Source: an uncultured bacterium (GTDB taxonomy: Bacteria > Verrucomicrobiota > Kiritimatiellia > RFP12 > UBA1067). Taken from it: a stretch of 64,000 bases of DNA. Position 1 is the stretch's first letter. Each line of letters begins with the position of its first letter. The notes below the pieces were generated by a model. The model ran no database searches and was not told the origin of the DNA. It saw only the letters and a list, made by a program, of their open reading frames with translations. The stretch is from NCBI GenBank assembly GCA_902801025.1, contig CADCGZ010000001.1, forward strand, positions 11,091 to 75,090, read 5' to 3'. Positions 25,951 to 58,618 of this stretch are shown piece after piece. Both the position numbers and the translations under genes were made by a program.

Positions 25951-26000
25951 GACCCTAAAGGACTCTAAAAGACTCTAAAAGACACTAATTGACCCTACTG
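25951..26000. repeat. 5 x 10-bp phased tandem words GACNCTAANN in the ackA-pta spacer
   Basis: GACCCTAAAG GACTCTAAAA GACTCTAAAA GACACTAATT GACCCTACTG. The same word family occurs inside kdsD, inside uvrA and in the hairpin after the secretin gene. Confidence 0.9.
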
Positions 26001-26002
26001 CT

Positions 26003-27040
26003 ATGAACGCAATCAAGAACATCATTGAAAAGGCCTCGAAGCTGAACGGAACGGTCGTTCTCCCCGAGGGCATGGACCCCCGCGTCATAACCGCCGCGTG
26101 CGCTTGCGTCGACCGCAAGATCGCGACGCCCGTCGTTCTCGGCACTCCCGCGGAAATCGCCGACGCAGAGGCGAAGGCCGGTCTCAAGCTCGCAGACCGC
26201 GGCATCAAGACGATTGACTATACGCAAGGCGACGCGGAACTCGAAGCCGCGTATCTCGAAGCGTGGAACGCAAAGGAGTCGAAGAAGCCGGCCGAGAAGC
26301 AGAAGATCATTGACCTCGCCGCAGCGCAGAAGACGCTCCGCACGAAGCGCATATACTTCGGCGGCATGATGGTTAAGCTTGGTCGCGTCAACGGTCTTGT
26401 CGCGGGTTCGATCGCCTCGACTGGCGACATGCTTCGCGCGGCGTTCCACACGCTTGGCACGCAGAAGGGCGTCAAGACGGCGTCGAGCTGCTTCATCCTC
26501 GACCTCAAGACCCCGACGGCGTCGGGCGACGAAGTGCTCGCGTTCGGCGACTGCGCGGTTATTCCCGATCCGACGGCCGAACAGCTCGTCGACATCGGCC
26601 TTGCTACGGCGCAGACCTACCGCGACCTCACCGGCAAGGAGCCGCGCGTCGCGTACCTCTCGTTCTCCACAAAGGGCTCCGCGGCGGGTCCGCTCGTCGA
26701 GAAGGTCCAGAAGGCCGTCGAGCTCGCAAAGCCCCGCTTCGAGGAAGCCGGCATCAAGATGGATGGCGAGCTGCAGTTCGATGCGGCGATCGTCCCTGCG
26801 ACCGGCAAGCAGAAGAACCCGAACGGCGCCGTGCAGGGCGACGCGAACGTCTTCATTTTCCCTGACCTCAACGCAGGCAACATCGGCTACAAGATCGCGC
26901 AGAGAATCGGTGGCGCCGACGCCATCGGGCCGAACCTCCAGGGACTCGCCAAGGCGATGAACGACCTCTCGCGCGGCTGCTCCGCCGAGGACATCGTTGG
27001 AACCATCTGTGTAACGCTGCTTCAGTCGACGACAAAGTGA
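26003..27040 (+). CDS. pta: phosphate acetyltransferase (short form)
   Basis: 345 aa. VVLPEGMDPRVI, the DCAVIPDP region and FIFPDLNAGNIGYKIAQR are typical Pta/PTA_PTB motifs. Located next to ackA. Confidence 0.95.
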   Translation: MNAIKNIIEKASKLNGTVVLPEGMDPRVITAACACVDRKIATPVVLGTPAEIADAEAKAGLKLADRGIKTIDYTQGDAELEAAYLEAWNAKESKKPAEKQKIIDLAAAQKTLRTKRIYFGGMMVKLGRVNGLVAGSIASTGDMLRAAFHTLGTQKGVKTASSCFILDLKTPTASGDEVLAFGDCAVIPDPTAEQLVDIGLATAQTYRDLTGKEPRVAYLSFSTKGSAAGPLVEKVQKAVELAKPRFEEAGIKMDGELQFDAAIVPATGKQKNPNGAVQGDANVFIFPDLNAGNIGYKIAQRIGGADAIGPNLQGLAKAMNDLSRGCSAEDIVGTICVTLLQSTTK

Positions 27041-28143
27041 CAGACAACAAGATGATCGAGCGCGCGAAGCAAGTCTTCGCAGTTGAGATCGAGGGTCTCG
27101 AGAAGACCCGCGACTCTCTCGGTGCATCTTTTGTCAAGGCGGTCCGGCTCATTCTCGACACTGTCGCGGACGGCGGCATTGTCGTCGTCTCCGGCGTCGG
27201 CAAGAACCTCCACATCGCCGAGAAGATGAGCGCCATCTTCTCTTCGACTGGCACGCGTTCGATCGTCCTCAATCCCGTGCAGGCGATGCATGGCGACCTC
27301 GGCATGGTCTCCGCGAAGGACGTCCTTATCGCGCTTAGCTTCTCCGGCGAGTCGGCCGAGGTCAACAACTTGATTCCCGCGATCCGCCGTCACGGGCTCA
27401 AGGTCATTTCGATGACTGGCCGCCCCGACTCGACGCTTGCGCAGATGAGCGATATCCACATCGAGATTCCGTGCGGCAAGGAGGCGTGTCCGTTCGGCAT
27501 GGCGCCGACGAACTCGACGACGGCGACGATGGCGATGGGCGATGCGCTCGCGATGGTGATGATCGACGCGCAGAAGTTCCCTGTCGAGGACTACGCGATG
27601 AACCATCCGGCGGGCGCGATTGGCAGGGCGCTTGTCATGAAGGTGACGGATGTCATGCGCTCGGGCGAGCGGCTTGCGAAGGTCGGCCCCGAGGCGACCG
27701 TTCTCGATGCGCTGATGGCGATGACGAAGGCGCAGGGCGGCAGTGCCATTGTCGTGGACGCGAGCGGCAAGCTGCTCGGCATCTTCACCGACGGTGACTT
27801 CCGCCGCATCATGAGCGAGAGGGGCAAGTTTGGGTCAAATAGCGTCGGTGTAGAGTCTGGTAGTGTCGGCAAGACCCTGAGCGACTCTAATTCGCCCCTA
27901 AGCGACGCTAAAGGACCCTATTCGACCCTAAGCGACGCTAAAGGACCCTATTCGACCCTAAACGACCCTATCTCCCTCTACATGACCAAGTCTCCGCTCT
28001 TCGTCTACGACGACGCGTATGCTGCGGAGCTCCTCAAGATCTTCGAGAGAAAGCGCATCGACGACCTGCCGGTGTGCGACAAGTCTGGCCGGGTGGTCGG
28101 ACTCGTGGACATCCAAGACCTGCCAAAGATGAAAGTATTGTGA
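27037..28143 (+). CDS. kdsD: KpsF/GutQ-family arabinose-5-phosphate isomerase (SIS + CBS pair) carrying a ~50-codon repeat-derived insertion
   Basis: SIS motifs VVVSGVGKNLHIAEKMSAIFSSTG and ALSFSGES, followed by a CBS pair. GTG 27037 overlaps the pta stop (GTGA); an alternative ATG lies at 27052. The protein is ~40-50 aa longer than typical KdsD, and the excess maps to 27828-27978. Confidence 0.9.
   Translation: MTDNKMIERAKQVFAVEIEGLEKTRDSLGASFVKAVRLILDTVADGGIVVVSGVGKNLHIAEKMSAIFSSTGTRSIVLNPVQAMHGDLGMVSAKDVLIALSFSGESAEVNNLIPAIRRHGLKVISMTGRPDSTLAQMSDIHIEIPCGKEACPFGMAPTNSTTATMAMGDALAMVMIDAQKFPVEDYAMNHPAGAIGRALVMKVTDVMRSGERLAKVGPEATVLDALMAMTKAQGGSAIVVDASGKLLGIFTDGDFRRIMSERGKFGSNSVGVESGSVGKTLSDSNSPLSDAKGPYSTLSDAKGPYSTLNDPISLYMTKSPLFVYDDAYAAELLKIFERKRIDDLPVCDKSGRVVGLVDIQDLPKMKVL
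27828..27978 (+). repeat. in-frame foldback word array inside kdsD: ~4 inverted words (nTAGnGTC) then ~11 forward 10-bp words (GACnCTAn), including a perfect 30-bp x2 duplication (27901-27960)
   Basis: Read directly from the sequence. It encodes KFGSNSVGVESGSVGKTLSDSNSPLSDAKGPYSTLSDAKGPYSTLNDPISL between the two CBS motifs. Confidence 0.9.
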
Positions 28144-28151
28144 TTAAAATA

Positions 28152-28296
28152 AGCCACAAAGAACAGGAGAAAACAGGAGAATGGGAAAGAAAGAACGTAA
28201 TATCACCTATTTGGTGATGAGGGATATTGAAATCGGTGCTGTTGAAATGTCAAATTGCCGAGACAATACCTCCTGTATCTCCTGTTCTTTGTGGCT
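28152..28296. repeat. foldback element: 28-29-bp imperfect inverted repeat (19 bp perfect AGCCACAAAGAACAGGAGA / TCTCCTGTTCTTTGTGGCT) around an AT-rich 88-bp core
   Basis: Left arm 28152-28180 contains AACAGGAGA twice. Right arm 28269-28296 contains the complement TCTCCTGT/CCTCCTGT twice. The core holds a sub-hairpin TCACC..GGTGA. Located between kdsD and the pilus-like cluster. Confidence 0.85.
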
Positions 28297-28362
28297 AAAC
28301 GATGGCGAGACCTGGGGCAACAGAGGAATTTAAGTTAAACCAAATAGGAAAGGAACAACAAA

Positions 28363-57734: not shown

Positions 57735-57992
57735 ATGATGTACAAATTCATGGAATTGCCGGACAAGACGGAAATCACTCATTCCGACTTAAGAGATGAC
57801 GGAACCGTGAAGGTTTGCGTCGAACGTCCTATTGAGGGAGATTTTAAGACCGCGTATTGCACTATCCCCGGCTATGGGTGGTATGATGTCGAGGGATACT
57901 TGCCAGAAGAGCTTGCTGAGAATCGGAAAATCCTTGAATCCCTTTCGCATCTGATAGTCCGATTTGCTCGCAACGGAGGAGTGGCTTTTTGA
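57735..57992 (+). CDS. hypothetical small protein (85 aa) in a visibly AT-richer segment
   Basis: ATG preceded by AAAGGGG. The ORF has no long overlapping competitor. No family recognised. Confidence 0.5.
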   Translation: MMYKFMELPDKTEITHSDLRDDGTVKVCVERPIEGDFKTAYCTIPGYGWYDVEGYLPEELAENRKILESLSHLIVRFARNGGVAF

Positions 57993-58037
57993 TATAACGA
58001 TGCTGTTCCAATGACAACATTCTGTGGAGTGTGATCT

Positions 58038-58440
58038 TTGACATCGTTGGAGGTTCCCCAGTTTTTCGGGCATGAAAACGGCCACACCCCTGTAAACAAA
58101 GGGTGAAGTGGTGATTTTCATTTCGCGATAAGTGAAAACTCCTTTCCCGATTTTCTAAGCAACTCCGAGCGTTTGGGCTCCCGCTACCGCTCCGCAGCTT
58201 CGCGTCCCTCAACGACTGAATATGTGCAGGGTTAAGCGTTTGGGGATGCGACTGCGTCGCATAAATCGGCCGAGGGCCGCTATAAACACTATGAAAGGAG
58301 TCACTTGATCGTGGTTGAAAAGCGCGAAGCAGTGAAGCGGTAGCGGGAACCCTAACCATCGGAGTTTCTGAAATTCCGCGCGGGGTGTCGGAAAGGGGCG
58401 GCAGTACCTGCGAAAATTGGGGAACCTCCAATTGACATCG
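58038..58440. mobile_element. non-autonomous transposable element (MITE, 385 bp) with 19-bp terminal inverted repeats and a perfect 9-bp target-site duplication
   Basis: TSD TTGACATCG at 58038-58046 and 58432-58440. Left TIR TTGGAGGTTCCCCAGTTTT (58047-58065). The reverse complement of the right TIR (58413-58431) is TTGGAGGTTCCCCAATTTT, an 18/19 match. No transposase ORF lies inside. Confidence 0.75.
58161..58366. repeat. long-stem hairpin element, copy B (206 bp), nested inside the MITE
   Basis: Arms are ~90% identical to copy A (AACTCCGAGCGTTTGGGCTCCCGCTACCGCTCCGCAGCTTCGCG ... CGCGAAGCAGTGAAGCGGTAGCGGGAACCCTAACCATCGGAGTT). The interior holds TTTGGGG plus hairpins ATGCGACTGCGTCGCAT and CGGCCGAGGGCCG (58239-58279). 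Confidence 0.9.
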
Positions 58441-58481
58441 GCATTGCCACGAGGGGCGCGATTTGGTAGACTACGCGGAGA

Positions 58482-58570
58482 GCCGGAGTGGTGGAATGGC
58501 AGACGCAGCGGACTTAAAATCCGCGGCCTGGTAATCAGGCGTACGGGTTCGAGTCCCGTCTCCGGCACCA
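58482..58570 (+). tRNA. tRNA-Leu (anticodon UAA), CCA encoded
   Basis: Acceptor GCCGGAG/CTCCGGC. Anticodon loop CTTAAAA on stem GCGGA/TCCGC. Variable arm GCCTGGTAATCAGGC. T-arm ACGGGTTCGAGTCCCGT. Preceded by TGGTAGACT (58464-58472). Confidence 0.9.
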
Positions 58571-58593
58571 GACCTAAACTTCGCAAGTGTCTC

Positions 58594-58618
58594 GCGCAGA
58601 GGCGCAGAGAGCATAGAG
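58594..58618 (+). repeat. GCGCAGAG x2 plus a degenerate third unit directly upstream of rnc (CAGAG-orientation half element)
   Basis: GCGCAGAG GCGCAGAG AGCATAGAG. This is the reverse-complement orientation of the CTCTGCG array upstream of recA. Confidence 0.8.

Follow-up and report, generated by a model that had tools for sequence, protein, structure and literature searches.

Arrays of short G-rich words are known from Xanthomonas (GGGAATC) and from Nostoc and Calothrix (GGGGAYT, the STRR repeats), where they run to 2–26 units, lie mostly in intergenic DNA near gene ends, vary in length between close relatives and have no known function; each Xanthomonas genome has 70–75 pairs of GGGAATC arrays that face each other in inverted, convergent orientation (Rehm et al., 2015; PMC4692102). 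Repetitive extragenic palindromic (REP) sequences of the GTAG and CGTC superfamilies occur in eight phyla, including the Planctomycetes-Verrucomicrobia-Chlamydiae (PVC) group; GTAG REPs favour head-to-head dimers with the tag outside, and their clusters form tandem repeats that take in the adjoining DNA (Di Nocera et al., 2013; PMC3733652). REPs are also found inside genes, DNA-repair genes especially, with the most intragenic copies in the verrucomicrobium Opitutus terrae, where both uvrA genes are interrupted in frame (PMC3733652). REP, REPIN and BIME elements are mobilised by RAYT transposases of the HUH Y1 type (Bertels and Rainey, 2011, PMC3116915; PMC3733652), and TIRYT-associated repeats have a common GGGGWSAS motif (PMC3733652). 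Here we describe arrays and foldbacks of short words in a 64,000-nt stretch of DNA (the window) from an uncultured bacterium of the Kiritimatiellia (contig CADCGZ010000001.1, positions 11,091 to 75,090 of the forward strand). An initial annotation of the window knew of no described bacterial family of this design, and to say that none has been described is too strong in view of the heptamer arrays and the GTAG REPs; since the studies of Rehm et al. and Di Nocera et al. give close precedents, the kind of element is already known.

Word arrays and their foldbacks

The window has a G+C content of 57–66% and carries ackA-pta-kdsD, an Amuc_1100/1102 type-IV-pilus-like cluster, coaE, rho, uvrA, recA, three tRNAs, rnc, tkt and murJ. 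The initial annotation had proposed a single rule for the whole window, [word]n-core-[reverse-complement word]n, and each locus that it listed is indeed present, position for position. The design recurs in the window and in related genomes, but the elements do not make up one family. The words fall into five or more unrelated families whose periods are 7, 8, 9, 10 and 12 bp, and the words seen include TAGNGTC/GACNCTA, GGGGAAC, CGCAGAG/CTCTGCG, RGGAC and CTGAC. Some elements have a common core and unlike arms, others have common arms and unlike cores, several arrays are solitary, and the copies in kdsD and uvrA are mostly one-sided tandem arrays.

The enrichment of the words above chance was borne out within the window: GACNCTAN3GACNCTA was seen 12 times (0.00 expected from shuffles) and GGGRAMNGGGRAM 8 times (0.16 expected), and exact 6-mer word foldbacks were found at 3 loci, against 0.22 expected from order-3 Markov simulations. 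GACNCTA itself occurs 21 times on the + strand of the window, and 15 of these occurrences fall into three clusters at exact 10-bp spacing. Folding, computed for single-stranded DNA and given as z, agreed with the foldback design in part, being strong at 28150–28298 (z = -9.3), 36610–36690 (-8.6) and 37325–37446 (-6.7) and in coaE (-4.7), and weak in kdsD and uvrA; the half elements showed no fold. Several arrays had been overlooked, namely GGGGAAC arrays at 29067–29127, 44988–45019 and 45315–45331, a GTCG foldback at 46438–46494 and TCTACA x3 at 37463–37488. When these are counted in, hardly any spacer above ~50 nt in the region from 24.8 to 58.7 kb is left without such an element, the tRNA spacers being the exceptions.

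Inserts in genes and turnover in spacers

Evidence that the arrays come and go is found in kdsD, uvrA and coaE, where they are carried in frame on the + strand. The kdsD insert (27832–27970) lies in a loop of the CBS domain and consists of a TAGNGTC left arm and a GACNCTA right arm. Four and eleven words had been counted in the two arms, and these counts hold, but only three and eight of the words are exact: TAGNGTC x3 at 27840–27867 is preceded by one degenerate copy (27832–27867 in all), and the right arm (27873–27970) combines eight exact and three degenerate GACNCTA words at 10-bp spacing and in frame, with a 30-bp unit (three words, 10 aa) repeated twice inside it. Among 120 KdsD relatives (77–99% identical), the loop is either empty (324–329 aa) or holds (DRVGIGS)n followed by (DPNQTLS)n, which at the DNA level is [TAGGGTC]n[GACCCTA]m. 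Because the spacing of the relatives' words alternates between 10 and 11 bp, TAG is kept out of frame, and KdsD lengths rise in 7-aa steps (347, 354, 361, ... 389, 410), 7 aa being the 21 bp of two words spaced 10 and 11 bp. The longest fill has up to 21 TAGGGTC and 3 GACCCTA words (410 aa); at locus L119, one of six syntenic relative loci that we compared (L119, L120, L121, L243, L258 and L259), there are 21 left words, and higher-order 21-bp repeats are seen. The nearest relative with a short allele (L242) has one degenerate left word and three right words, and L120 and L243 have ordinary codons at the insert site. Even within one KdsD cluster of at least 90% identity, strains carry 0, 1 or 2 copies of the 30-bp right-arm unit. 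KdsD accommodates up to ~80 extra residues in this single loop.

An alignment of 120 UvrA homologues (78–100% identical, 945 to 1098 aa) revealed four indel hot spots that coincide with the four word arrays in uvrA of the window, and every hot spot is empty in some relatives and filled by different element families in others. Hot spot 1 (aa 140–156) is an array of 4.6 GGGGAAY heptamers at 44988–45019, and hot spot 2 (aa 249–252) has 2.4 GGGGAAC units at 45315–45331, a site where relatives carry a core nested between GGGGAAC words (peptide GNGE[RNRPL...AEGT]GNGERD). Hot spot 3 (45941–45976) is a mini-foldback of TAGTGTC and TAGAGGT followed by GACCCTA and GACTCTA; both of the two-word arms reported for it are present, with the second left word, TAGAGGT, being degenerate. 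This site is empty in 95%-identical relatives and is expanded to 72 aa in others. Hot spot 4 (46438–46494) is a foldback-like insert of the form CCGACAGTCG ... (A)AGTCG x3 ... CCGACTGTCG. Compared with the solved structure of Geobacillus UvrA (2r6f), the protein encoded in the window has extra residues at sites 1, 3 and 4. In coaE, a near-palindrome with a 9-bp period (36939–37030) consists of five RGGAC words followed by five GTCYY words; the same loop holds related or different inserts in relatives, with CoaE lengths of 201, 209, 201 and 256 aa.

Two relatives carry an element or element family at several sites. In L121, kdsD and coaE each contain, in frame, a copy of the same ~180-bp element (86.5% identical), which has a hairpin core between GGTGCTT/AAGCACC arms, and its peptide is also found at UvrA site 1 of other relatives. 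In L258, a REP-like family with GTAG plus a hairpin (GGTAGGGGCG...) occurs 14 times in 22.6 kb; it is found at UvrA sites 1, 3 and 4, among others, and forms a REPIN-like dimer between rho and uvrA. In one copy of this family the core is that of the L121 element and the arms are different, and the family is absent from the window.

The spacers tell the same story of occupied and empty sites. The foldback at 28152–28296 has perfect 19-nt arms (AGCCACAAAGAACAGGAGA / TCTCCTGTTCTTTGTGGCT), which include AACAGGAGA x2, around an AT-rich core of 107 nt; it is absent from L119, L120, L121 and L243, where the spacers measure 32–76 nt. A 50-aa open reading frame (ORF) with Cys (MGKKERNITYLVMRDIEIGAVEMSNCRDNTSCISCSLWLNDGETWGNRGI, 28181–28333) begins within this foldback, and AGGAGA words stand at Shine-Dalgarno distance from its ATG, where the opposite arm could sequester them; the arrangement may be due to chance. 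Between the stop codon of the secretin gene and the start codon of coaE, a long hairpin (36612–36687) of 12-bp CTGAC(ACAGTAG) units, with GGGTC/GACCC outermost and TAA on both flanks, is absent from L119, L120, L121, L258 and L259, which have spacers of 6–22 nt at this position.

The foldback at 37329–37442 represents what we call class A. It comprises TTAACGCAGAG, (GTAGCAGA)n, a two-hairpin core including GGGGTCTGGGGTGCAACCCCAG, and then CTCTGCGTCTCTGCGTTAA; the left arm has GCAGAGTA x4 and the right arm CTCTGCGT x2. The class-A core consists of two hairpins, including GGGGTCTGGGG-N4-5-CCCCAG, and is found with different arms: CGCAGAG in the window, CACAGAG in L120, CACAAAG in two copies in L121 and GTGTAGAA in L153. 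The termini of the 28152–28296 foldback, AGCCACAAAG/CTTTGTGGCT, are common to the class-A elements of L121. All class-A elements fold into one long stem plus two inner hairpins (z -5.5 to -10.8), and eight base pairs show double changes, which is weak evidence of covariation as the alignment holds only 4 sequences, one of them misaligned. A metagenome scan for GGGGTCTGGGG-N4-5-CCCCAG recovered L153 as the only true relative, with no common neighbouring gene; the matches came mostly from an unrelated, very abundant eukaryote-like dispersed repeat, which also carries this hairpin, and from scattered bacterial two-hairpin modules. The hairpin (37389–37410 in the window) was seen, usually with a second hairpin before it, in many metagenome contigs that are unrelated to one another (0.4–0.7 G+C; loci L128, L152, L164, L202, L204, L217 and L223), and had no Rfam match. 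A scan of the window with Rfam 15 at gathering score returned only the three tRNAs, permissive scans of 36500–37600 gave sub-threshold matches only, mostly to miRNA-precursor hairpin models, and Rfam found nothing meaningful in seven unrelated loci carrying the two-hairpin module.

Other arrays are solitary, all on the + strand of the window. Five GACNCTA words at exact 10-bp spacing (25951–25997) lie in the 56-nt ackA-pta spacer and end 5 nt before the pta ATG; L119 has four GACNCTA words in the same place, and L120 and L121 have class-A foldbacks there. The Amuc_1102-pilM spacer is filled by ~8 heptamers of the GGGGAAC type (29067–29127), and across genomes its content changes from GGGGAAC-type words (L120) to GACCCTA x5 (L119), a TAGTTAGG/ACCAAAC foldback (L121) and other words (L258, L243). 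Three TCTACA words with a 9-bp period follow at 37463–37488; their reverse complement, TGTAGA, is the arm word of L153. In the recA leader, a solo right arm (47568–47595) reads GCTCTGCG GCTCTGCG CCTCTGCG TTAA, with CTCTGCG x3 at 47568–47591, and its position is kept in L258 (as CTCTGTG/CTCTGAG) and in L259. Lastly, the spacer between tRNA-Leu and rnc holds a solo array resembling a left arm, GCGCAGAG x2 (58594–58610). The three half elements of the initial annotation are real (25951–25997, 47568–47591 and 58594–58610).

Two further foldbacks resemble MITEs (miniature inverted-repeat transposable elements). They lie at 55522–55745 and 58158–58369, have 57-nt arms that are 89% identical (containing GGTAGCGAGAGCCC) and different cores, and neither was found in the fetched relatives. 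The second is nested in a further inverted repeat (58047–58065 / 58413–58431) whose arms carry GTTCCCC/GGGGAAC. Because cores occur with different arms, and the arms of these two foldbacks occur with different cores, the elements are modular, put together from arms and cores in varying combinations, and one element may lie inside another.

Site occupancy among relatives, which the initial annotation had put forward as a check, thus came out as presence and absence of elements at orthologous sites in kdsD, uvrA and the spacers. The loci compared show elements gained and lost at such sites, in spacers and in in-frame permissive surface loops of essential proteins, and show arms changing length fast in frame-keeping units, with elements nesting in or beside one another; by the same comparison of sequences, at least one word-armed element is demonstrably multi-copy in one genome.

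We also followed the GACNCTA word across genomes, scanning one genome per species. The matches were of two kinds. Plain perfect 10-bp repeats in unrelated phyla are chance matches. The other kind has an invariant 7-mer and varied spacers of 3–4 nt and was found in metagenome-assembled genomes (MAGs) of Kiritimatiellae, 'Verrucomicrobia' and Lentisphaerae and in one Akkermansia MAG; there are three such loci in the 64-kb window and at least 18 in the related MAG CAMOCC01. In this class the words are spaced by 10 bp (262 cases) or 11 bp (28 cases). C is the commonest central base (230), ahead of T (96), G (28) and A (23). Spacers on the GACNCTA strand are G-poor and have a flavour particular to each locus. 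The polarity of the foldbacks is 5'-[TAGNGTC]n[GACNCTA]m-3', with TAG outermost, in nine out of nine PVC foldbacks. GACYCTA arrays with varied spacers were also found on phage contigs of ~0.6 G+C, L248/L250 (IMGVR_UViG_3300031994_000338) and L253 (IMGVR_UViG_3300028805_000506), where they lie in gene leaders just upstream of ribosome-binding sites (...ccaccacaacaggag..., with ATG directly after). A G-quadruplex reading of TAGGGTC arrays was set aside, as a quarter of the words are TAGAGTC and have no G-tract. In two ruminant-gut MAGs, a gene of 255–264 aa lies between two large GACCCTA foldbacks of up to 32 words (L006 3920–5566, L017 5867–7619); judging by its sequence, its product may be of the 'four-helix-bundle / 23S rRNA intervening-sequence protein' type, and among the fetched loci only these two had such a partner gene near the arrays.

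Some features of the window lie outside the arrays. Over 27042–38200, the independent ENA assembly contig L001 (98.9% identical to the window) is identical bar a few point differences and one 57-bp indel, and is too close for an informative strain comparison. The indel, the sole large difference over 11 kb, is in frame in an Ala/Pro/Glu-rich repeat region of the secretin gene (33327–33383). The 3' end of pta (26764–27042) shows ~30 differences from L001 in 280 bp, followed by 11 kb with almost none, and this abrupt change suggests a recombination boundary at the pta/kdsD junction. Between rho and uvrA lies a gene for 1828 aa with six Listeria-Bacteroides repeat domains (39086–44572); rho is directly followed by uvrA in L258 and L259, so the gene was either inserted in the window or lost there. 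Further downstream, a perfect 20-bp tandem duplication (AAGCAGGCGCGCGAGAGGTC x2, 56841–56880) truncates a GyrB/ParE-like ORF at 392 aa. Dropping one copy of AAGCAGGCGCGCGAGAGGTC restores an ORF of 610 aa; a true frameshift or pseudogene, a mixture within the population and a fault of the assembly are all possible causes.

Origin of the arrays

On balance, and by no great degree of confidence, we read the arrays as several families of small non-autonomous palindromic repeats, similar to REP/REPIN sequences, MITEs and Rickettsia palindromic elements (RPEs), which are seeded in trans and whose arms grow by slippage. An element would consist of two inverted arms of a family-specific short word around a short junction or a hairpin core. 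An enzyme acting in trans, with specificity for the word or for the hairpin, would seed new sites, and a HUH tyrosine transposase of the RAYT/TIRYT type is the likeliest one. The arms may then grow and shrink by replication slippage or by unequal recombination between words, and selection would purge out-of-frame or stop-containing alleles in genes; solitary 'half' arrays could be arms whose partner was lost or never existed. The RAYT/TIRYT type leads among candidates because TAG is always outside, because GTAG lies inside several word units (~6 of the ~19 seen, including CAGTAGCTGAC, GCAGAGTA and TGTAGA), because L258 has canonical GTAG REPs at the same sites, and because the GGGGWSAS motif of TIRYT repeats resembles the GGGGTCAG words of L259. 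The elements themselves have no coding capacity, and the genes of the window are all housekeeping genes.

A number of observations weigh against this reading. No RAYT/TnpA-like, TIRYT or other transposase gene was found in the window, and a tblastn search of 1.57 Mb of fetched loci gave no match to RAYT, a weak test because the E. coli RAYT query was approximate and such genes are single-copy. The anatomy is not that of a canonical REP, since GACNCTA forms no stem-loop itself and G precedes only ~21% of the TAGNGTC words (GTAG). The copies in kdsD (z = -2.2) and uvrA (45941–45976, z = -2.8) fold weakly owing to the great inequality of their arms (3 and 11 words), and hairpin recognition alone therefore cannot explain them. 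The flanks are TA, TAA or TTAA only, which makes any target-site duplication ambiguous, as such sequences are palindromic or part of the inverted repeat and a duplication would be indistinguishable from the repeat. That the same sites are used again and again might come from selection, which would favour permissive loops, and not from targeting. For the GACNCTA arrays, we infer copying between loci rather than see it, and amplification in place from chance 7-mers is possible.

A rival explanation is pure simple-sequence-repeat dynamics, an origin that has been suggested for the heptamers over-represented in Xanthomonas and Nostoc, in which micro- or minisatellites would arise in place by polymerase slippage and gain inverted partners by template switching at hairpins, with no mobile element or dedicated enzyme. 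We give this explanation a distinctly smaller but still appreciable chance. The whole-unit copy-number steps between strains, the higher-order repeats in arrays and the existence of solitary arrays speak for it, the locus-specific flavour of the spacers fits local growth, and there is the published case of heptamer arrays that vary in length, include convergent pairs and have no known function (PMC4692102). It does not readily account for one 7-mer with one 10-bp period at many unrelated loci in several PVC lineages and on phage contigs, for the polarity fixed in all nine foldbacks, for near-identical cored elements in different genes of one genome, or for one core with different arms. An invariant 7-mer with free spacers and a period of 10–11 bp, the helical repeat, has the look of a phased protein-binding array, and functional cis-elements are an alternative that we consider rather unlikely: the arrays could be phased platforms for a conserved PVC DNA-binding protein (nucleoid, partition-like or regulatory), or RNA elements for mRNA processing, stability or translation in operon spacers. 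Arrays often end just 5' of start codons, on the phage contigs as well, the recA-leader array holds one position in three genomes, class A has a conserved fold of one long stem and two inner hairpins, and the window contains the RNase III gene. However, one and the same spacer has unrelated words or none across genomes, arrays lie within the coding sequences of unrelated housekeeping genes, copy number varies freely between strains and no Rfam family matches; in a crude test based on stop-to-stop ORFs in a 62% G+C genome, arrays showed no orientation bias relative to flanking genes (12 sense vs 11 antisense).

A bolder idea, which we regard as unlikely, is that a dedicated sequence-specific machine common to Kiritimatiellae, Verrucomicrobia, Lentisphaerae and phages writes or maintains the GACNCTA arrays, and perhaps others, either as a 7-mer-specific enzyme adding polar units of a fixed 10 bp or as a protein that polymerises along one face of the helix and thereby selects phased words. 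If true, bacteria would have a new way of making or exploiting tandem DNA, even inside essential genes. The arrays might also be repair scars: a templated polymerase or a reverse transcriptase would have extended broken ends with G-rich TAGGGTC-N3 before they were joined head to head, with a product like a telomere-telomere fusion. In favour of this, the polarity is fixed and convergent, the G-rich strand pointing 5' to 3' towards the junction, the arms are unequal and variable, the junction is short and non-conserved, the consensus unit is the telomere-like GGTTAGGGTC, and the spacers differ in composition between strands. We nevertheless find repair scars improbable: varying spacers argue against a single template, internal changes of multi-word units are a slippage pattern, no candidate enzyme was seen, and the cores of the other word families would be left unexplained. 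That the arrays are assembly or sequencing artefacts of short-read metagenomes is hardly credible, although the window and its relatives are metagenome contigs and the perfect 20-bp duplication at 56841–56880 does break an ORF. The artefact explanation, which the initial annotation had named as a way to refute its reading, fails on the identical arrays in the independent assembly L001, and on records of the same proteins from numerous contigs and samples: an identical UvrA protein is found on 14 contigs, and the kdsD insert is carried by a 90%-identity cluster of 36 KdsD sequences. Furthermore, the reading frame is open through all coding inserts, and homologous inserts occur in dozens of assemblies.

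This lineage has fast-evolving palindromic word arrays in nearly every spacer longer than ~50 nt and in loops of the essential enzymes KdsD, UvrA and CoaE, and offers a natural system for studying the seeding of REP/MITE-like DNA, arm growth and the insertion tolerance of essential proteins. A trans-acting factor is suggested by the GACNCTA arrays, which keep one 7-mer, one 10-bp phase and one polarity in PVC lineages and on phage contigs. The arrays could be used as variable-number tandem-repeat strain markers, and they are a source of gene-length artefacts in MAG annotation.

Comparison with known systems

The initial annotation had likened the elements to REP/BIME sequences, RPEs and foldback transposons, and these analogies are apt. 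As with REP/REPIN sequences, the elements are small non-coding palindromic repeats, with several families per genome, clusters repeated in tandem along with their flanks, copies between co-directional genes and in-frame copies within genes, and window-type foldbacks place TAG outside in all nine cases, as do head-to-head dimers of GTAG REPs. In contrast, a REP unit is a stem-loop of 20–40 bp, a feature found in the GGTAGGGGCG-hairpin family of L258, whereas the GACNCTA, GGGGAAC and CGCAGAG units are non-palindromic words of 7–10 bp and only whole foldbacks pair. Their arms reach 21 words, the words pair between arms and the spacers do not, and GTAG is not conserved before TAGNGTC.

The repeats of Xanthomonas and Nostoc are likewise arrays of short G-rich words with some positions fixed and others free, and their convergent pairs have the [word]n...[reverse-complement word]n layout. 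The GGGGAAC arrays of the window are of this type: tandem 7-nt G-rich words are found at 29067–29127, 44988–45019 and 45315–45331, two of the three being intragenic. Unlike those repeats, however, the GGGGAAC arrays are all direct, with only single GTTCCCC/GGGGAAC words inverted at 58047/58413, and the window has several families with periods of 7–12 bp, many in-frame copies in essential genes and some elements that have conserved cores and are multi-copy; GACNCTA, the dominant word, repeats every 10 bp and in many cases contains no G-tract.

RPEs are units of 100–150 bp in several families (RPE-1 to RPE-8 of Rickettsia) that lie in frame in conserved genes, including DNA-repair genes. The present elements are similar in being palindromic in-frame inserts that add loop peptides and leave the gene intact, a likeness that is functional only: no relationship in sequence is known, RPEs have no word arrays, and the host here is free-living and gut-associated and not an obligate intracellular bacterium. 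Bacterial MITEs (Correia, Nezha, Chunjie) have in common with our elements the terminal inverted repeats around a short non-coding core, TA-containing flanks, presence/absence polymorphism and occasional in-frame insertion; terminal inverted repeats are seen at 28152–28296, 37329–37442, 55522–55745 and 58158–58369. The arms here differ from those of MITEs in being internally tandem and in varying between copies with a common core, and none of the fetched loci contained a parent insertion sequence whose ends match. Foldback transposons of eukaryotes (Drosophila FB, Galileo) also have long inverted arms of short tandem subrepeats, variable in length and often with little between them, but they are of kilobase scale and have P-element- or MULE-type transposases, so that the likeness is one of form only.

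In the literature that we consulted, whose coverage is incomplete, nothing specific was found on these words or on repeats of Kiritimatiellae. Relative to the systems above, four features appear to be new, namely arms made of arrays of very short non-palindromic words; a 10-bp-phased invariant GACNCTA word with free spacers and fixed polarity, common to PVC lineages and some phage contigs; the extreme arrays carried in frame; and the way in which many families have come to occupy the same loops and spacers time after time.

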